64,000 bases of DNA from an uncultured bacterium. Lineage in GTDB: Bacteria > Margulisbacteria > WOR-1 > JAKLHX01. The notes below the pieces were generated by a model. The model was not told the origin of the DNA and searched no databases. It saw only the letters and a program-made list of their open reading frames with translations. Position 1 is the stretch's first letter. Each line of letters begins with the position of its first letter. The position numbers were made by a program, and so were the translations under genes. Where the stretch lies: assembly GCA_964532225.1 (NCBI GenBank), contig CAZHHM010000005.1, positions 12,100 through 76,099 on the forward strand. Reading direction: 5' to 3'. Shown in pieces: positions 20,839-30,349 of this stretch.

Positions 20839-21618
20839 CTATCTGTCTTCTATGATGATGTACGGGGTCCCCAGACCGCTCTCAAGACCCTCGTACCTAA
20901 TGAACTGATGAGGGGCCGCGCTCTCAAGCCAGAAATACGTCTTGGGCACGAAAGCACCCAGCATGTTGACCAGCCCAAGGTCAGGCACCATTTCTATCTT
21001 GTTGCAAAGCATTTCTGTGCCTTTGACGGTTATCTTTTCTTTGCCAAGGTTCTTTCCCGTCATCTTATAGGAAGTGGGCTCATGCGTCAGAAGACTAAAG
21101 ATGAACTCTTTCTTTTCGAACGGGAAGTTCGACATGCTGATGCCCAGATTCTCTTTGTCGATCATGCCTTCGGTATACTTTATCTCTTTGGTCTTGCCGT
21201 TCTCCGTGAACAGGACCTTGCCTTCTTTAGGAAGGTAATCTTTTTGAAAAGAGCGCAGCACTTTGCCGCTCTTATCCTTGAACTCGCCCTTTACCTGATG
21301 CGGGACCAGCTTGTCCCCTTCGATCCTGAAGAAAGACCTCACGGCCCAAGTCTTGTATGTTCCGTCCTTGCCCCAGATGCCTTCCCCTTTGTCCTCGATA
21401 TAAAGGAAAGGCTTGCCCTGCACATCGACTTTCTTGGTCACAATAGTGTTCTGCCAGAGGCTCCTGCCTGAGGACTTTTCTACCGCCTTTGTCCCTCTCG
21501 CACCTATATGCAGATCGGACATCATAAAAGCCTCGGAGATCGCGGGTGCCGCAATCACCACGGCCAGGAGAAGAAGTGACGCAGATATCTTTTTTATCAT
21601 ATGTCCATCCTTTTTCAT
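20839..21618 (-). CDS. Hypothetical secreted protein
   Basis: Signal peptide MIKKISASLLLLAVVIAAPAISEA. Lys-rich mature part, no recognised family. Confidence 0.5.
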   Translation of the reverse strand: MKKDGHMIKKISASLLLLAVVIAAPAISEAFMMSDLHIGARGTKAVEKSSGRSLWQNTIVTKKVDVQGKPFLYIEDKGEGIWGKDGTYKTWAVRSFFRIEGDKLVPHQVKGEFKDKSGKVLRSFQKDYLPKEGKVLFTENGKTKEIKYTEGMIDKENLGISMSNFPFEKKEFIFSLLTHEPTSYKMTGKNLGKEKITVKGTEMLCNKIEMVPDLGLVNMLGAFVPKTYFWLESAAPHQFIRYEGLESGLGTPYIIIEDR

Positions 21619-21710
21619 TGATTTTGAGCCATTATAACACCGGTGAAGTCGCTCTTCAATTTAATCCGGAACAGTGAAATTGCAAGCTGGTTTTGAAGAT
21701 AAGGATATGT

Positions 21711-23003
21711 ATGAGCTCATTTTCAAGGACATCATTAGTGCGCCACCCAATATTGTCTACAAGGGCGCTAGTTGAAAAGATCAACAACATATACTACCCG
21801 AAGGTCCAGTTCAGGTACATAAACAATGACCATATCCAGCCTCTGAGCGTGTTCGACTCGCATACGATAATAAGCAGCATCAACGGGATAGGCGGACATC
21901 CGGGCACCATCAACTGGAAAAGCATGATCCCGTTCGTGGGAGCCGCCTATTCTGCAATCAAAGCCGTCGACAGGGCAACGGTATCTTCTGCTTTTATGAA
22001 CGGTAAAGACGTCCCTAACAATATCGAGATAACATACGATATCTCCGTAAAGAAACAGGCCTTCAAGGTTGGCGCCAGTCTGTACCTGATGATGGAGGGA
22101 TTCCCTCTTCTTAACCTGGGCATTCTCGGCGTACCGCTTGATTTTCTGGAGGCCTTCTCCTATCTGACACTTAACGCCGCAAGGAACGTTTTTGCCGATC
22201 TGGGGGCAAAGCACGGATGGAACATCAGGCAATGGAGAGCACATCCGGAGCACCTCAAGATCACAAAGCTGACGACCTCCCTTATCGTAACCTCGCTTTC
22301 GTACCCACTTCTATCTTTCATGAAGAACATGACATATTTCGAGTTCGGCGATTCTCCGTGGGTCTGGGTCGCGACACCTTTGACCCTCACAATGCTTGAC
22401 GGAGCGATACAGTATGTATCAAGAAAAATGAGAGGCTTCGACAATTCCATGGCCAAGTATGATTTCTTCCGGCCTGTCGTAGGGGACACGCTGTCAACAC
22501 TGTCCTTCTTCTTGTCAGGCATGGATATCGCGGGCAATTTTTCCTATCTTATCCTAAGAAAGGTCTTCTCTGAGCTCTGGACGGGACATTTTGAAAGCTC
22601 GACCAAACGCCGCGAAAAGATCATCGAAAGGCAGGAACAGTTCAAGGAGATCCTTGACATAAAAAGATATCTGGTACCCGACCCTATCGCGACATCCTCG
22701 ATCAATTTCGTGTACATGATGAACGTAAAATCTCTGGCTCAAAGGTCTTTCTCCGAACTGCTTTCCGATCAGGATTTTGTTTCAAACAACCGAAAAGTGC
22801 TACTCGACATACACAAATGCCTTACAGAGAACGGAGAACGCACCGATAAAGCGGTCGATTTTCTGTTCCCCGCCGGCAAGTTCAGGGTCTTCGGCGACGT
22901 AATGAAGGAACGTTTTTCCGAGAATAAGGCCGGCTATCTGGATTGGTACCGGGTGAATATCGGGCTTTTTGAAAGGTCCGTCGTGGAAGGGATAACGCGA
23001 TGA
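21711..23003 (+). CDS. Hypothetical protein with several hydrophobic segments (island ORF)
   Basis: Start moved to the ATG (MSSFSRT...) preceded by AAGGA; the track begins at a TTG. No recognisable motifs. Translationally coupled (ATGA) to the downstream LysM gene. Confidence 0.4.
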   Translation: MSSFSRTSLVRHPILSTRALVEKINNIYYPKVQFRYINNDHIQPLSVFDSHTIISSINGIGGHPGTINWKSMIPFVGAAYSAIKAVDRATVSSAFMNGKDVPNNIEITYDISVKKQAFKVGASLYLMMEGFPLLNLGILGVPLDFLEAFSYLTLNAARNVFADLGAKHGWNIRQWRAHPEHLKITKLTTSLIVTSLSYPLLSFMKNMTYFEFGDSPWVWVATPLTLTMLDGAIQYVSRKMRGFDNSMAKYDFFRPVVGDTLSTLSFFLSGMDIAGNFSYLILRKVFSELWTGHFESSTKRREKIIERQEQFKEILDIKRYLVPDPIATSSINFVYMMNVKSLAQRSFSELLSDQDFVSNNRKVLLDIHKCLTENGERTDKAVDFLFPAGKFRVFGDVMKERFSENKAGYLDWYRVNIGLFERSVVEGITR

Positions 23004-23434
23004 CGGCGCCTGCGAGAAAAACGCGCTACAGCAGTGCGTCCAGCATCGGCATCAGGCTTATAAAGAGCGGGCTCATGATTAACAGCGGCAAGGTGACACT
23101 TCTTATAAAAGAGAACGATACGCTTTGGAACATCGCTGTAGCGATAAGAAAGACCGCCCCTCTGTGTTCGATGGTATCGGTCAATAAGATAGTGAGCATG
23201 CTGATGATACAGAACGGGATAGCGCAAGAGAAGGACCTCCTTCCGGGAACGGTGATCACGTTCACCCTACATTTTCCGGAACTTGCCCCCTCGGTGCCAT
23301 CAGAGACCTTGCCTGTAAAAAAGCCTTTCTGGAAAGACCCCGCATCAAACCGCTTCTTCAGACCGGTAAAAAGGATAGAACCGGCCGATCTGCACGAGCT
23401 ACTGACCAAGATGTTCGGCTCTGACGGTAGATAG
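23000..23434 (+). CDS. LysM-domain protein
   Basis: LIKENDTLWNIAVAI...LLPGTVITF LysM-like motif, paralogous to the DTLWDIA LysM in the 12473-15040 protein. Confidence 0.5.
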   Translation: MTAPARKTRYSSASSIGIRLIKSGLMINSGKVTLLIKENDTLWNIAVAIRKTAPLCSMVSVNKIVSMLMIQNGIAQEKDLLPGTVITFTLHFPELAPSVPSETLPVKKPFWKDPASNRFFRPVKRIEPADLHELLTKMFGSDGR

Positions 23435-23512
23435 GTCTTTATCTTTTTTAAATTACTCGTCTTTAACTGAAATCACTTACTTATATGAACGATATATACT
23501 CAGAAAGACTAA

Positions 23513-25870
23513 ATGGGAACAAACATCGGTAGCAGAACGATCGCAACGGACCTTATCAGGTCGAGACGGCCTTTCATCGAAAGGTCTTTGTCGAACAGCG
23601 GTTTTGAAAGGATCTCCGGATCCAGACCTGCTGTCAACGCTTTAACAAAGCTAAGCCTTGGCATGATACTGAGGTCCGAGGCGGAATCCAGGCTCAAAAG
23701 ATCGGGCATAGAGATCACTCCTCCGCTAAGCGTTCATCTGGACTCATACTTCAGGACACCTCCGGCTGCCACAGCCGACCGAGGGACTCAGACCTCAGGA
23801 GAGCCGCTTCAGATGCTGAGAGGGACCCCGGGCGAGGTCCTTGATGCGATAAGTATGATAAGGGCAGGCCTATCCTCAGACGACCGCAGACAGTACCTTA
23901 AGCAGGACATATACGATTCTTTTATCGATATCCTCCTTGCCGGCGGAATAAACCCGTTCATTAAAAGTTCGATCACCGAACAGGTGCTGCCCAAATACAG
24001 CCACTCACGTTTCGGGACGGAACGCTCTCTTATCCTGCATATATCACTGCTAAAAGGTAAAAAAGACCATGAAGCAGCGGTCAAAGAGCTCTCTAATTTC
24101 GGAGCGAAATGCTTTTCAGAGAACGCACTGGGGACAGCCATTCCGGATATTCTCTCCCCAAAGCTGAAACATCCTCCTCAGTACGCAGACGGGCTTATAA
24201 CTTTGTTCCGCACAAAGAACAGGACAAGCTTCAGCGACAGGAACTTTGACCTGTGCATCGGGTTCGATACCAAGGCACACACCCCGGACATGACCAGGAC
24301 GTTCCTTGGTCTGCTTGATGCGTTCTTACTTTCCGGAAAGATCAGCAGGGAACGTATTTCGGACGCCTTCAACATAGCTTCCGGAATACTTTTGACCCAG
24401 GCATTCGACAAAAAGTCCGTGCTTCATGCCATGTCGGTGATCAGGAGCTCAGCCGCGAGTGTTCCCGAAGGCGCCGGAAATGCGCTCGCTTCAAGGATCA
24501 TTTACCTTTGCAGGGACCATGACAGCCAGGTCTCTTACGGAGCACTAAAAACCGCCGCCAGTCTCTTTGCTTCGGCAAAGATCCCTTCAACAGAAGAACT
24601 TAATGCTATTGCGTTTTCCAAGCTTAAGGACCACAACTTTGAATGCAGGGCCGGCGCCTGCTCACTGATATCTGCACTTTTCGACAAAGGCGCTATTTGC
24701 GGTATTTCCACACAGAGGAATGTCAGGTCGGCGATAAAACCTCTTGGCGCTTTGGGGCAAGAGCAGGCCCGTGACGTGCTGGCTTTTCTTGAACGGGCCC
24801 ATAAGGAAGACAAGTCCTCCTTTGACAGGGACAACCTCGAACATCTGCTCGACATCTGGTCCCGCGATGAAGCTCCCGGATCGAGCGGAATGCATCTTTG
24901 GATGGTGCCGGCTCTGGCATTCTTTGACTGCATGCCTCCCGAAGAAAGGACCTATTGCGCCCTGTCAGGCATACTGCAAAGCAAAGACTACACGCACCGG
25001 TCCGCAGACGCTTTCATGAGACTGGTCAATTCTATGCTGACAGCAGAGAATGTCGGCGCCGAGACAATATTCTCGACGATCTGGGAATTCTGCAGGAACG
25101 AAGGCCAGGCAGTCACTAAAGACCTGATCGGCATGATGCGCTCCATACCCGGATGGGAAAGGGATAACAACTTATCAGGCATTGAGGACATCATGCAGAT
25201 ATCCCTAAGACATATGGACCCGTCTTTCCCGGGAATGACATGGAAAGAGCTGCTGGCAAAAGAAGTAAAAATGCTTGTCAGGTATTTGCGGGACGTAAAG
25301 AATACCGGTTTTCCGGAAGACCTGATGAAAAAAGCGGCTTTTAAATATACTTATATCGTCAGGAACGGAGGCATAGAGAAAGCCGATCTTGAGGACCTTG
25401 ATAAGGACCGGCTCACTCTGGATGACATCGACAACATGTACGACCTGAGAAATGATATCAATCCGTACTTCCTTGCTCTTGAAGCGCAGTTGAGGATAGT
25501 GACAGAGTCCCTTACGAAAGCCAAGAAGGACAAAAGCTTAGGCAGGGACGCGGTCAAAAGGCTTGAAGAGCAAAAGGCGCTGCTGACCTCGGAAACAAGG
25601 CAAAAGAGGAAGAAGCTTATCACGCTTGCCGTCATGTTCAACAGCGTTCAGAGATACCCTTCGCAGCTCCTTTCAAAGCCGGAGATAAAAAGCTTCGTTG
25701 ATGAATTCAGGGCAACGCTCAACCTCAGGAATTCCATACCTCAGATAATGATAGAAAAATTAAAGATCATCCTTTGGGATAACTGGGAAGCGGTCGAGAC
25801 CATTGCGGAGAGGGTCAAAGCCGAGGTTAAGGGGCTGAAAGAAGAATTCCTAATATTCGAGGAAAAATAA
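23513..25870 (+). CDS. Large hypothetical alpha-helical protein (785 aa)
   Basis: Long ORF with no enzyme motifs recognised. C-terminal coiled-coil-like region. Ends 8 bp before tRNA-Leu. Confidence 0.4.
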   Translation: MGTNIGSRTIATDLIRSRRPFIERSLSNSGFERISGSRPAVNALTKLSLGMILRSEAESRLKRSGIEITPPLSVHLDSYFRTPPAATADRGTQTSGEPLQMLRGTPGEVLDAISMIRAGLSSDDRRQYLKQDIYDSFIDILLAGGINPFIKSSITEQVLPKYSHSRFGTERSLILHISLLKGKKDHEAAVKELSNFGAKCFSENALGTAIPDILSPKLKHPPQYADGLITLFRTKNRTSFSDRNFDLCIGFDTKAHTPDMTRTFLGLLDAFLLSGKISRERISDAFNIASGILLTQAFDKKSVLHAMSVIRSSAASVPEGAGNALASRIIYLCRDHDSQVSYGALKTAASLFASAKIPSTEELNAIAFSKLKDHNFECRAGACSLISALFDKGAICGISTQRNVRSAIKPLGALGQEQARDVLAFLERAHKEDKSSFDRDNLEHLLDIWSRDEAPGSSGMHLWMVPALAFFDCMPPEERTYCALSGILQSKDYTHRSADAFMRLVNSMLTAENVGAETIFSTIWEFCRNEGQAVTKDLIGMMRSIPGWERDNNLSGIEDIMQISLRHMDPSFPGMTWKELLAKEVKMLVRYLRDVKNTGFPEDLMKKAAFKYTYIVRNGGIEKADLEDLDKDRLTLDDIDNMYDLRNDINPYFLALEAQLRIVTESLTKAKKDKSLGRDAVKRLEEQKALLTSETRQKRKKLITLAVMFNSVQRYPSQLLSKPEIKSFVDEFRATLNLRNSIPQIMIEKLKIILWDNWEAVETIAERVKAEVKGLKEEFLIFEEK

Positions 25871-25878
25871 GCCCTATT

Positions 25879-25962
25879 TGCCGTTGGAGAGACTCGAACT
25901 CTCAAGAGTGTTACCTCACATGGTCCTAAGCCATGCGCGTATGCCAATTCCGCCACAACGGC
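25879..25962 (-). tRNA. tRNA-Leu (anticodon TAG), type II with long variable arm
   Basis: Folded by eye: acceptor gccgttg/caacggc, 3-bp D stem, anticodon stem catgg/ccatg with loop cttagga, T arm gagag-ttcgagt-ctctc, discriminator A. No encoded CCA. Confidence 0.8.
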
Positions 25963-26045
25963 ACGTAGTCCATTTTAACACGCACGGTATTGACATTTTA
26001 TCTCCAAGCTATATGATATCCCTGCCTAAAGAAAGGAGCCAACAG

Positions 26046-27215
26046 ATGAAACATTTCGCGATCATGGCGTTCCTGCTTGCAATGACATCACATTCCTTTG
26101 CTGCGCTGTATATCGGCGAGACGAAAGCGATACTTGAAAGCATATCAAATAAGAGAGCCGAGATAAATTTCGCCTACGATTCGTCCCCTGCCCCGAAGTT
26201 CGCGATGTGGCCTTCGGACAGCAAGTTCGAGGTCTATTACAGGATGTGGGACGACTCCAAGCTTGCGGGTTATTCTCTGAACGTTTGGCAGACATTAGAC
26301 ATGTACAACTTCAACACTTGGGCATGGACAATTGGCGGCACGGGTAATAGCGCTACAGGCACTGACACGATGCGGGGAAAATATGACAATTCAGGGATAT
26401 GGAACATATACCCCTTGAACCAGGGGAACGTGACAAAGTTCAAGCTGACATTGAGCGCGGACACCAAAAGCATACCAAGAAGGACAGAAAGCAGGGAGTT
26501 CTACGTACTTAAGAACATGCCTGACGGCTCGAGGACCGCAAAGAAACAGGCCGCGATGAAATGGATAGTCGGACGGCTTGAACGTGCAACAATGTTCAGG
26601 AACATGGCCGATACATGGAAGGCAAAAAGGACCTCCACGTCTTCTGTCAACTACAACCTTGAAATGGGAAAGATCATCATGAGCGCTGCGGGGCTTTTCG
26701 GTCCTACTGACGCAAAAGGATACGCAATAGACAGCGGCATTGAGTTCCTGGACCTCGCCTCCTCCGTCTTCGGGAATGTCGCGACAAGCAGCCTGGTCTC
26801 TGTAGGCGGGGCCGTCTATCAGGCTTATGACTGGGGAACATGGGCAAAAAGCACGCTGCAGTCATCCGCAAACCTTTGGAATTCCGCATTTAGCGATTTC
26901 AGGGCTTCCCAGACGGCAAATCTGGTAGGCACAGGCCTTGAGAATGATCTTTACAACCTTGCTAACGCCATGAGGGATGATGCCAACGAAGTTATCAGAA
27001 TAATGTACACTGCTCCCTACGACAGCACTGCGAATTGGAAGAGCCTGTTAAGCCTTGAAAAAAGCCGGGCCAACAGCGTCGGTGTATCTGCCGCATCGGC
27101 AAAGAGCAAAGCGGACCAGATCTGCGGCACCGGATCTAACCTTTCGAATTTCTTTGAGACGATAAACAAGCTTGCTAACGCGGAATGGATGGTGCTGAAT
27201 CAGATATCATTCTGA
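26046..27215 (+). CDS. Hypothetical secreted protein (389 aa)
   Basis: Start MKHFAIMAFLLAMTSHSFAA (signal peptide) after SD AAGGAG. The track ORF start upstream overlaps tRNA-Leu and is not credible. Confidence 0.45.
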   Translation: MKHFAIMAFLLAMTSHSFAALYIGETKAILESISNKRAEINFAYDSSPAPKFAMWPSDSKFEVYYRMWDDSKLAGYSLNVWQTLDMYNFNTWAWTIGGTGNSATGTDTMRGKYDNSGIWNIYPLNQGNVTKFKLTLSADTKSIPRRTESREFYVLKNMPDGSRTAKKQAAMKWIVGRLERATMFRNMADTWKAKRTSTSSVNYNLEMGKIIMSAAGLFGPTDAKGYAIDSGIEFLDLASSVFGNVATSSLVSVGGAVYQAYDWGTWAKSTLQSSANLWNSAFSDFRASQTANLVGTGLENDLYNLANAMRDDANEVIRIMYTAPYDSTANWKSLLSLEKSRANSVGVSAASAKSKADQICGTGSNLSNFFETINKLANAEWMVLNQISF

Positions 27216-27260: not shown

Positions 27261-27269
27261 TAAGTAATA

Positions 27270-27331
<62 letters not shown>

Positions 27332-27342
<11 letters not shown>

Positions 27343-27520
27343 ACAATGTCAAACAAGAAACGCTAACGATACTCCCTAGTCCCTCGCCCCAATGCCATCC
27401 AGGCGAGGGGCTAATGGCGCATTAAGCTGAACAAGTACCACAAAAGTAACTTCCTAGTCCCGAGCCCCAGTGCCATCCAGGCGAGGGGCTAATGGCGCAT
27501 AACGTCATACAAGAAACACC
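27332..27520. repeat. 78-bp tandem direct repeats (2 full + 1 partial) each beginning with a copy of the tRNA-Lys 5' end (gctaatggcgca)
   Basis: gctaatggcgca recurs at about 27332, 27410 and 27488. Each unit carries a hairpin ccctcgcc...ggcgaggg and the block acaagaaac. Confidence 0.7.
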
Positions 27521-27537
27521 AACTTATTGATTATAAC

Positions 27538-29025
27538 ATGATGGATTTTCTGTTTCCTCCCCTGCCTTTGTGTGAAATCCATGGAATAAACAACCGAGAT
27601 ATTGGCATGGGAACACCGACGGTCAGGAATTCATATGCAAGGCCTATCATGTATATCAAGGAAGCATGCAGGTCCTATTGGAATCTCCTGAAGCGGCCCG
27701 AGGCTTATTCAAAAATGCCCTTCCTTTACGGGATAAAAAGCATACTTGAGACCCCTAACTCAAAACTCATAGCAGATCTCAGAACAGAACTGGAAAACCT
27801 CTATTCCATAAACGGCGGTAAGCATCCAGTTAAGTACTACCTTCTTAATGAGAACATGAGGGAAGCACTGTTCAATACACAGGCGACAGCATGCAGGACG
27901 ATAATTGATAAGGTCAACGCAAGATATAATGTCGACCTTTACAGGTCCCCGCTCATCCATCAATTCGGCTGGCCGGAGTCTATGCTCACCGAGGTCAACA
28001 GATCGTCAAAATTGAGCCTGAGGATGGTGACCGTAGTATCCGATGAATGGGCCTATTCCGAAAAAGCCCTGAAATTAGCTTTCGAACTCGGGCAGGCCCT
28101 AGCGGAACATGACATTCTCCCTGTCATCGGCCAAGACAATCCGCTGATCAGGTCAATGCTTGACGGGCTGCATGGTAACGGGGGCAGTTCGGTCGGGATA
28201 CTTGAGAATTTCTTTGACATGCCCGATGTTACATTAAGGGTCCAGGCCAATGTCGGGGACCTGAGAGCAAGCATTCTTACCCGCAGCGGACGGGTAATGA
28301 TAAAGCTAGGCAGCGATGACCTTTTCAAAGGCATATTCAGAACGCATGGGCAAGAAAGGCCAAGTGACACTTTCGGTGCCCAGGTCACGGCCTTCGCACG
28401 GGAACAAGCAATAGATATCCATGCTCTTGATCCGGAGACCTCTCCTGATATCGTCGGGACCTCCGAATGGCTGCAGGACAAGCTTTGCTTTGCCAACGGC
28501 ATTAAGAAGTATTCCGAAGCATTAAAAGCCAGACCTTATCAGATAGCGATCATCGGCTCCATGAACACCAACATAGATTCCCCGATAAACCTTACCACTG
28601 TACCAAGAAGCATCGGGAAATGGTATGGAGAGAATAATTTCTCAACTAGCAACGGCGGAGGTCCGGGCACAATGGAGACGCTTGCAGAGGGAGTGGCGAT
28701 CTCAAGGGGAATCGCCATAGGCCTCTCCCCCGATATCTCCTATGTCGACTGTAACAAGGGCATCGACATTCCCATCCCGACCGGTGTAAGCTTTGGAAGG
28801 GATTGCATGGTGCCTACAAGCGGAGGCTTCGTCACGTCGTTCCCCGGGTTGACCGGTACCATTGATGAAATAATCTACGGAATGAAACATGACAGGCATG
28901 TAATTTCACTTTTCGGGCCCATTCCTGAAGATGCGTCGGGATACCACAAACTGCACAGGGTCTATTCTGAGGAAGAGCTGAAAACCACCACTTTAGAGCT
29001 TAGGGACAGACTGTCACTGAGATGA
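27538..29025 (+). CDS. Hypothetical protein with C-terminal LOG/SLOG-like (TIGR00730-type Rossmann) domain
   Basis: ELGQALAEHDILPVIGQDNPLIRSMLDGLHGNGGSSVGIL, NGGGPGTMETLAEGV and SFPGLTGTIDEIIYG resemble LOG-family blocks (GLVYGGG..GLMG..A; PGGFGTLEEL). N-terminal ~190 aa unrecognised. Start uncertain. Confidence 0.45.
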   Translation: MMDFLFPPLPLCEIHGINNRDIGMGTPTVRNSYARPIMYIKEACRSYWNLLKRPEAYSKMPFLYGIKSILETPNSKLIADLRTELENLYSINGGKHPVKYYLLNENMREALFNTQATACRTIIDKVNARYNVDLYRSPLIHQFGWPESMLTEVNRSSKLSLRMVTVVSDEWAYSEKALKLAFELGQALAEHDILPVIGQDNPLIRSMLDGLHGNGGSSVGILENFFDMPDVTLRVQANVGDLRASILTRSGRVMIKLGSDDLFKGIFRTHGQERPSDTFGAQVTAFAREQAIDIHALDPETSPDIVGTSEWLQDKLCFANGIKKYSEALKARPYQIAIIGSMNTNIDSPINLTTVPRSIGKWYGENNFSTSNGGGPGTMETLAEGVAISRGIAIGLSPDISYVDCNKGIDIPIPTGVSFGRDCMVPTSGGFVTSFPGLTGTIDEIIYGMKHDRHVISLFGPIPEDASGYHKLHRVYSEEELKTTTLELRDRLSLR

Positions 29026-29027
29026 TC

Positions 29028-29101
29028 TGCGCCTAGTGGGAGTCGAACCCACAACCTTCAGCTTCGGAGGCTGACACGCTATCCAATTGCGCTATAGGCG
29101 C
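29028..29101 (-). tRNA. tRNA-Arg (anticodon CCG)
   Basis: Reverse complement gcgcctatagcgcaattggatagcgtgtcagcctCCGaagctgaaggttgtgggttcgactcccactaggcgca. Begins 3 nt after the stop of the upstream ORF. Confidence 0.85.
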
Positions 29102-29112
29102 ATGAACTAAAA

Positions 29113-29186
29113 CGCGCCCAGAGGGATTCGAACCCACGACCTACTGGTTCGAAGCCAGCCGCTCTATCCAGCTGAGCTATGGGCGC
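29113..29186 (-). tRNA. tRNA-Arg (anticodon TCG)
   Basis: Reverse complement gcgcccatagctcagctggatagagcggctggctTCGaaccagtaggtcgtgggttcgaatccctctgggcgcg. One T-stem mismatch in my fold. Confidence 0.75.
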
Positions 29187-29244
29187 ATATGGAGATTTTA
29201 TCACAGGGGGACCTTTGATATACTATACGCAGGAGGTACCTACA

Positions 29245-29803: not shown

Positions 29804-30349
29804 TCAGCCTTTTTTCTTGATGCTGAAGACACAGCCGCAGTAGGACTGGCAGAAGATATCGTTCTCTCTTGCATACTGGCGCGCCCGTTTGAAACCGTCC
29901 TTCTTCTTGAAGTCATACCTGATAAATGAAGCTCCGCCGGTCTCCTCGCCTATCTGATTTATGATCTTTGAGTCCTTGTGGGGACTGACCGTGAGGGTTG
30001 TCGTAAAAGCGCCGATACCCAGTTTTTTCGCCATTTGAGCAGTCTCGGCAAGTCTGCCCCTGAAACAGAAATCGCAGCGCTTACCGCCTTCTTTTTCGTT
30101 CTCGAGCCCGGGCACGCTCATGAGCCAGGAATCAGCATCATAAACACCTTCGATCATCTGCACTCCCAGGAGCTCGCACACTTTCCGGGCCGCTTCATAA
30201 CGCCTTAGGTATTCCGCTTTTGGGTGTATGTTGGGATTATAGAAGAACCCTATCGGCTCATACCCGTCCTCCCGCAGCTTCTGGATAGGCCAGGAAGCGC
30301 ATACTCCGCAGCACATATGGAGAAGTATCCTGTTGTCCTTTGTGTTCAT
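29804..30349 (-). CDS. queH: Epoxyqueuosine reductase QueH (DUF208)
   Basis: LLHMCCGVC N-terminal and CQSYCGC C-terminal cysteine motifs. Confidence 0.8.
   Translation of the reverse strand: MNTKDNRILLHMCCGVCASWPIQKLREDGYEPIGFFYNPNIHPKAEYLRRYEAARKVCELLGVQMIEGVYDADSWLMSVPGLENEKEGGKRCDFCFRGRLAETAQMAKKLGIGAFTTTLTVSPHKDSKIINQIGEETGGASFIRYDFKKKDGFKRARQYARENDIFCQSYCGCVFSIKKKG

Follow-up and report, generated by a model that had tools for sequence, protein, structure and literature searches.

A tandem SLOG cluster-4 protein with one degenerate and one intact domain copy, encoded among tRNA genes of an uncultured Margulisbacteria bacterium

The molybdenum cofactor (Moco) carriers and TM1055 belong to SLOG cluster 4 (Pfam PF18306, LDcluster4), the sister family of LOG. 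The Moco carrier proteins (MCPs) appear to be the only PF18306 proteins that have been studied biochemically, since the sequence of RoMCP, as printed in PMC7470044, scores 2.8e-58 against the profile; the literature on PF18306 and on NCBIfam TIGR00725 yielded nothing else of use. MCPs are 222 homotetramers of ~160-aa single-domain protomers with AB dimers within the tetramers, and the anion site of RoMCP is formed by R42, S67, R89 and T109 (PMC7470044). LOG enzymes carry the motif PGGxGTxxE, and in CgLOGII Arg155 and Glu178 are catalytic and Lys156 and Thr175 essential, the K156A variant being inactive (PMC5379747). Here we describe a protein encoded on a 64,000-nucleotide stretch of contig CAZHHM010000005.1 from an uncultured Margulisbacteria bacterium (the window in what follows), by an open reading frame (ORF) of 495 codons which we call the SLOG gene; residue numbers throughout are those of this ORF. 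On sequence and profile comparison the protein consists of a predicted helical domain, a degenerate SLOG domain (copy 1) and an intact SLOG domain (copy 2), a new architecture in a known but poorly studied family.

Domain architecture and predicted fold

The whole protein matches PF18306 in two stretches with an E-value of 3.4e-25 (88.9 bits, cutoff 26.3), and both regions also score individually, copy 2 (aa 322-495) at 1.2e-18 and 67.6 bits and copy 1 (aa 152-331) at 5e-06 and 26.6 bits, the latter over aa 164-258. Family profiles of aa 151-300 and aa 325-495 match each other in hhalign over 126 columns with a probability of 96.5% and an E-value of 8.8e-10, which shows that one chain holds two copies of the SLOG domain. 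Both halves of the more distant full-length relatives likewise score against PF18306, and the second and third modules of the protein stem from an ancient tandem duplication of the cluster-4 domain. The known PF18306 members, in contrast, are single-domain proteins of ~150-220 aa, whereas the window protein combines two copies, one of them degenerate, with a helical domain of ~130 aa.

Three further profiles score under their family cutoffs, namely NCBIfam TIGR00725 (E 9.8e-18, 64.1 bits, cutoff 106.9), NCBIfam TIGR00730 for the LOG subfamily (24.9 bits, cutoff 96.35) and Pfam PF03641 Lysine_decarbox (E 0.96, 10.1 bits, cutoff 27). Among PDB sequences, phmmer finds the type-II LOG 5zi9 as the best match (4.7e-10), with TM1055 (1rcu) and the Moco carriers 2iz5 and 6y01 ranking next. 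Membership of SLOG cluster 4 is sound on these scores, which do not support placing the protein in the LOG family proper. An earlier note on this DNA had proposed a LOG/SLOG-type domain and named searches with both sorts of profile as checks; the SLOG half of the proposal stands with the significant PF18306 match and genuine GGGxGxM and PGxxGTxxE-like motifs, while the LOG half is not borne out by the scores of TIGR00730 and PF03641. The sequence blocks on which that proposal was built are all present, HGNGGSSVGIL at aa 212-222, NGGGPGTMETLAEGV at aa 372-386 and FPGLTGTIDEIIYG at aa 435-448, but the first of them lies in the separate, degenerate copy 1. The ~190 N-terminal residues, described as unrecognisable, divide into aa 24-156, which have no known relative, and a remainder that belongs to copy 1.

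The AlphaFold 2 model calculated with an 87-sequence alignment has a mean predicted local distance difference test score (pLDDT) of 73.5 and a predicted template modelling score (pTM) of 0.49, the single-sequence model (pLDDT 33) being unusable. Copy 2 is well modelled (aa 333-495, pLDDT 88-98) and is predicted to have the Rossmannoid SLOG fold: its top Foldseek match in the PDB is the Moco carrier/binding structure 6y01 (9e-9, target-normalised TM-score 0.82, root-mean-square deviation 2.6 Å), and together 6y01, 1rcu (TM1055) and 2iz5 (CrMCP) match with a probability of 1.00, target-normalised TM-scores of 0.79-0.84 and deviations of 2.4-2.9 Å over ~165 residues. After the MCPs and TM1055 come LOG structures of types I and II, DprA and PpnN. 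The last of these, the LOG-like nucleotide 5'-monophosphate nucleosidase of E. coli (YgdH), resembles the window protein in its length of ~450 aa and in having a SLOG-type core within regulatory extra domains; it is found at ranks 31-48, with the SLOG core only and a target-normalised TM-score of 0.27-0.30, and since its flanking domains are unrelated and its LOG domain is single and not in tandem, the likeness is one of analogy, not of membership.

The N-terminal module is predicted as a purely helical domain (aa ~29-156, pLDDT mostly 84-95). The earlier note had suggested looking there for a sensor or effector fold, and none was found: aa 24-156 have no Pfam match, and the N-terminal family profile retrieves from the PDB only designed helical repeats, which were treated as compositional and rejected. 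Residues E42 and R45 of the helical domain are invariant across the family.

The predicted ligand pocket of copy 2

With the known PF18306 members (RoMCP 6y01, CrMCP 2iz5, TM1055 1rcu and the TIGR00725 group) copy 2 shares a GG.G.ME loop, an arginine before strand β5 and a G.GT..E segment. With LOG proteins of types I and II it shares the superfamily, the fold, the GGGPGxME loop, the positions of the catalytic arginine and glutamate, and the threonine; in the alignment to 5zi9, R421 corresponds to Arg155 of LOG, E444 to Glu178 and T441 to Thr175. Residues G373, G375, G377, M379, G437, T441 and E444 are invariant in all seven family members, and the position of R421 is aligned as arginine in six of the seven. 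As the members are only ~15-33% identical, such invariance speaks for copy 2 having a functional ligand pocket. The equivalent positions of copy 1 are occupied by GQDNPLIRS (aa 198-206) at the glycine loop and LGSDDLF (aa 257-263) at PGxxGT..E, and copy 1 has lost the nucleotide- and phosphate-binding motifs which copy 2 retains. Identity to the two closest relatives, P0002 and P0003, is 38-43% for copy 1 and 36-39% for copy 2, and copy 1 is by this measure conserved as well as copy 2 and is not decaying.

LOG enzymes are dimer-based, and LOG proteins and MCPs alike function as obligate homodimers. Given this, and given that the pairing of a dead with a live copy is conserved, the two copies would pack against each other to form an internal pseudo-dimer in which only copy 2 has a working pocket. 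This pocket would most likely bind a nucleotide-like small molecule that carries a 5'-phosphate, holding its phosphate and its ribose-like portion, and the nucleotide-metabolic operons of distant relatives (guanylate kinase, PfkB, NUDIX, nucleotidyltransferase) point to a nucleotide-like ligand as well. N-glycosidic cleavage by LOG-like phosphoribohydrolase chemistry would be possible, because the LOG Arg/Glu pair and the threonine are kept. The helical domain and the dead copy 1 may act as regulatory or oligomerisation modules. We give about an even chance to this overall interpretation, in which the protein is a pseudo-dimer within one chain and its ligand, a 5'-phosphorylated nucleotide-like molecule, is bound and possibly hydrolysed.

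Several observations weigh against it. The protein scores below the TIGR00730, PF03641 and TIGR00725 thresholds, and R421 is followed by D422 where LOG needs a lysine, the residue whose replacement inactivates CgLOGII. The counterpart of the LOG motif reads PGLTGTIDE, with leucine in place of the second glycine of PGG, although the proline, the first glycine and the later glycine, threonine and glutamate are kept. RoMCP, a binder and not an enzyme, keeps the same Thr/Glu motif, so that motif retention cannot separate binding from catalysis. The AlphaFold 2 model leaves aa 222-329 unmodelled (pLDDT below 50), and with a pTM of 0.49 neither the relative placement of the two copies nor the packing of a pseudo-dimer is seen in it. 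Lastly, no conserved neighbour supplies a pathway for the close subfamily.

A rival reading is that of a carrier or storage protein for a labile cofactor, be it Moco, molybdopterin or a similar phosphorylated pterin, that performs no catalysis. The best structural matches are Moco carrier/binding structures, 6y01 and 2iz5/2iz7 at target-normalised TM-scores of 0.80-0.84, RoMCP itself is a strong PF18306 member, and in an alignment made by hand two of the four RoMCP anion-site residues are kept, with R421 in place of R89 and T441 in place of T109. The other two are lost, R42 being replaced by G375 and S67 by D399, the last position being different in each of the three close relatives (P0002 has G, P0003 has E). 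Furthermore, the single-domain, homotetrameric MCP protomer of ~160 aa differs considerably from a 472-aa tandem with an additional domain, the neighbours annotated in the window include no molybdenum-cofactor genes, and the Moco saturation of RoMCP is itself just 0.43% (PMC7470044). A carrier role of this kind appears unlikely for the window protein.

Relatives and their genomic surroundings

The protein had been called an orphan, which is nearly right. In word-indexed searches of 5.8 billion proteins, the query and a 7-sequence profile each retrieve only the protein itself, and its cluster at 90% identity has a single member. An exhaustive HMMER scan of 1.84 billion cluster representatives gave 346 matches at E <= 1e-3, and the best 150 of these 346 include only six full-length relatives besides the window protein, none above 33% identity. 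Two are 33% identical to it, P0002 (471 aa, E 1.7e-59) and P0003 (489 aa, E 4.6e-59), and four are ~20-26% identical, P0004 (474 aa, E 4.6e-15), P0015 (439 aa, E 1.3e-09), P0085 (458 aa, E 1.5e-06) and P0103 (492 aa, E 4.2e-06). The remaining matches among the best 150 mostly have a single domain and a length of about 125-270 aa, and a few are longer or two-domain proteins such as P0024 and P0033. Of this last pair, one is a 456-aa double type-II-LOG-like protein and the other a 439-aa double cluster-4 protein, both copies being intact; since such unrelated SLOG tandem fusions exist, tandem duplication of this dimer-forming fold has arisen more than once.

A scan of GTDB representative genomes, from which the source genome is absent, found only the metagenome-assembled genome (MAG) that carries P0002 and one single-domain match, a metagenome scan added two further loci of the P0002 and P0003 types, and no relative of the window protein was found in the viral contigs scanned. 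Exact-sequence look-ups among contigs gave no match for P0001 or for the window GpsA, and for QueH a single Logan contig of 3.1 kb, which stops at the tRNA-Arg genes. The QueH protein encoded in the window has a best non-self match of at most 60% identity, the nearest named sequences coming from Margulisiibacteriota and Omnitrophota MAGs; together with the absence of the genome from the scanned GTDB representatives, this indicates that the lineage is very sparsely sampled.

Orthologue pairs were compared for the P0002 type and the P0003 type, and their ratios of nonsynonymous to synonymous substitution rates (dN/dS) are 0.16 and 0.19, so purifying selection acts on the family. An ORF that is spurious or decaying and resembles SLOG motifs by accident might have been suspected from the solitary 90%-identity cluster in 5.8 billion proteins and from the weak ribosome-binding site (GAGAT) before the presumed start codon, but the profile E-values of 1e-18 to 1e-25, full-length relatives at down to 1.7e-59, the dN/dS values and the two confidently predicted domains effectively refute it. 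The SLOG gene is a genuine chromosomal gene that is selectively maintained.

Within the close subfamily, formed by the window protein, P0002 and P0003, the gene is solitary and stands in unrelated housekeeping surroundings. P0002 is encoded between genes for an RRM protein and, in convergent orientation, a DUF4412 protein, with a deoxyhypusine-synthase-like gene close by, and the P0003-type loci lie among Rrf2/ferredoxin or methyltransferase and glycosyltransferase genes. The P0002, P0003 and window loci have no neighbour in common, and those of P0002 and P0003 contain no tRNA genes, so the survey of homologue neighbourhoods suggested in the earlier note brought out no shared partner.

The more distant relatives are differently placed. 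P0103 (locus L016, 965-12732 on a contig of Logan ERR15087788) shares its cluster with proteins of the NUDT9_N-NUDIX and SPASM types, with a 741-aa protein for which no Pfam or PDB relative was found, with a guanylate-kinase fusion of 1000 aa and with another tandem-SLOG paralogue. P0015, at a locus in ENA, is accompanied by a guanylate-kinase protein, PfkB and again a tandem-SLOG paralogue. P0085 (locus L015, 44-3764) has on one side a GlgC-like nucleotidyltransferase, which bears a hexapeptide tail, and on the other a glycosyltransferase of the GT5/GT4, glycogen-synthase-like kind. The guanylate-kinase fusions of the P0103 and P0015 clusters are 729-1000 aa long with a faint NDK-like N-terminus, and the clusters also encode very large proteins of unknown function (1075 and 1960 aa). 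This nucleotide-centred cluster may represent an undescribed nucleotide pathway. Such neighbours speak for a metabolic context and not for one of defence. The 785-aa neighbour of the SLOG gene was considered as a counterpart of the partners in these operons and rejected, as no ORF of the window has blastp similarity to the partner proteins of loci L014-L016.

The nearest single-domain relative of copy 2, P0005, is encoded on short ENA contigs (L018, L019) and is flanked by a Vut_1 gene and a repressor with helix-turn-helix and Peptidase_S24 domains. Vut_1 is the YhhQ-type queuosine-precursor transporter family, and the window QueH gene lies ~780 nucleotides from the SLOG gene; the two proximities are a hint at a queuosine link and prove nothing.

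The SLOG gene in its chromosomal locus

The features of the locus are collected in Table 1. The translation start is taken as ATG 27607, because the NCBI-called product P0001 matches aa 24-495 and begins at M24 and because the alignments of P0002 and P0003 to the window protein begin at aa 28; M24 is on this evidence the likely true start, which would give a protein of 472 aa. The highest 19-residue Kyte-Doolittle mean is 1.0, and there is no hydrophobic segment. The 495-codon ORF and its position between tRNA-Lys and tRNA-Arg, which the earlier note had reported, are as described. The tRNA-Arg(ccg) gene runs towards the SLOG gene, its 3' end following the stop codon after 1 nucleotide (29023-29027), and given this spacing the transcription units of the two genes must terminate inside each other.

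Table 1. Features of the SLOG gene and its flanks, in window positions (residues of the 495-codon ORF in brackets)
Feature	Position	Strand	Basis or remark
Maximal ORF, 495 codons plus stop	27538..29025	+	First 23 codons probably untranslated
Most likely coding sequence, 472 aa	27607..29025	+	NCBI product P0001 and homologue alignments; soluble, no predicted transmembrane segment
N-terminal all-alpha domain (aa 24-156)	27607..28005	+	Only helices in AlphaFold 2 model; no Pfam match
SLOG copy 1, degenerate (aa ~164-294, about 160-295)	28027..28419	+	PF18306 stretch; hhalign to copy 2
SLOG copy 2, predicted intact cluster-4 domain (aa 334-462)	28537..28923	+	PF18306, AlphaFold 2, Foldseek
Glycine-rich loop GGGPGTME of copy 2 (aa 373-380)	28654..28677	+	Aligns with GGGPGAME of type-II LOG 5zi9
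R421 of copy 2	28798..28800	+	Aligned with LOG catalytic Arg; HMMER alignment to 5zi9
PGLTGTIDE of copy 2 (aa 436-444)	28843..28869	+	Putative counterpart of LOG phosphate-binding/catalytic motif PGGxGTxxE; 5zi9 alignment
tRNA-Leu(tag), farther upstream	25878-25963	-	ARAGORN, Rfam
tRNA-Lys(ctt), divergent upstream neighbour	27269-27343	-	ARAGORN, Rfam
78-nt tandem repeat	27332-27523		Between tRNA-Lys and SLOG gene
tRNA-Arg(ccg), convergent downstream neighbour	29027-29102	-	ARAGORN, Rfam
tRNA-Arg(tcg), convergent downstream neighbour	29112-29187	-	ARAGORN, Rfam
QueH	29804-30349

The window is part of the core chromosome of a flagellated diderm, and the flanks of the SLOG gene within it are core genes. 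Upstream of the gene are RuvA, RuvC, KsgA and PdxA, and its neighbours further include QueH, dCTP deaminase (Dcd), a thioesterase, a response regulator, PlsY, GpsA, HflX and DAHP synthase; RelA/SpoT, GlyS, ThrS, IlvB, FliF and a NifA-like activator are encoded elsewhere in the window. A TPR protein is also among the neighbours, as are a 785-aa protein and a signal-peptide-bearing 389-aa protein without Pfam matches. These two belong to a run of ORFs at 20842-27215 in which none has a Pfam match, consisting of 259 aa (-), 436 aa (+), 785 aa (+) and 389 aa (+); tRNA-Leu (-) separates the 785-aa and 389-aa ORFs, and tRNA-Lys (-) comes after the latter. The mechanically called ORF at 25878-27215 has 445 aa and overlaps tRNA-Leu in antisense, for which reason the real start of the 389-aa protein is probably the methionine codon at 26046.

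Between tRNA-Lys and the SLOG gene, a 78-nucleotide unit is directly repeated in tandem 2.5 times. Each unit starts with the reverse complement of the first 12 nucleotides of tRNA-Lys (GCTAATGGCGCA) and holds a GC-rich hairpin of 8 bp (CCCTCGCC...GGCGAGGG), which places two additional copies of a leader with a tRNA 5' end upstream of tRNA-Lys proper. A 28-nucleotide core of the repeat occurs nowhere else in the window; the fold z-score is only -2.05, and the repeat has no match in Rfam.

The earlier note proposed a plausible nucleotide-signalling component in a tRNA hotspot. Read as a sensor or signal-processing part of a nucleotide-based anti-phage or conflict system, the protein would have the helical domain as its effector. 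The superfamily invites such a proposal, since SLOG domains can bind nucleotide signals without catalysis, as does ThsA of Thoeris, and have been predicted in conflict systems (PMC6459960). The gene is moreover wedged among tRNA genes, beside the lineage-specific 785-aa and 389-aa ORFs, and the repeat with its tRNA-Lys fragment lies just upstream. However, although the window protein shares the superfamily with the ThsA-type conflict SLOGs, it has neither a fused SIR2 or other known effector domain nor a ThsB/TIR or cyclase partner, and it is not in a defence island. No PADLOC family matches it, and among eight neighbours PADLOC gives nothing save a weak, TPR-driven PrimPol match (4.8e-4). Around the SLOG gene there are no integrase, no duplicated tRNA 3' end or att repeat, no signal-generating enzyme and no known effector domain. 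An island integrated at tRNA-Arg or tRNA-Lys was considered and rejected for want of 3'-end repeats, and the 78-nucleotide repeat copies the 5' end of the tRNA, not the 3' end that integrases target. The composition of the gene is host-like (GC 0.495, with third-position GC and codon preference within the range of housekeeping genes in the window), its relatives are absent from the viral contigs scanned, and the close relatives are solitary in differing housekeeping contexts, none adjoining tRNA genes. The conflict-system proposal is left without positive evidence beyond the reputation of the superfamily, and we regard it as highly improbable. A conflict or signalling role is not supported, and the protein stands as a somewhat unusual representative of an established fold family, not as a new system. 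As a lesson for genome scans, a SLOG domain adjoining tRNA genes is not by itself evidence for a defence or signalling system.

The combination of a helical domain, a dead SLOG copy and a live SLOG copy could define an undescribed family of regulated nucleotide-processing proteins, whose deeper branch may take part in the synthesis or breakdown of a metabolite or signal that derives from a nucleotide and has gone unrecognised. The solitary gene in the window would then encode a free-standing receptor for, or hydrolase of, that molecule. This larger proposal is rather doubtful, and a variant of it in which the molecule is connected to the salvage of queuosine precursors, after the Vut_1 gene beside P0005 and the QueH gene of the window, is speculative. 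For the family as a whole, SLOG cluster 4 is large and almost uncharacterised, and experiments have approached it only through the carriage of Moco, studied in algae and in a single cyanobacterium. A tandem with a conserved, motif-stripped copy is a natural experiment on obligate dimers, with one live site per pseudo-dimer, and the operons of the distant relatives, with their nucleotide kinases, a NUDIX protein and a nucleotidyltransferase, provide a route to the ligand of the family.

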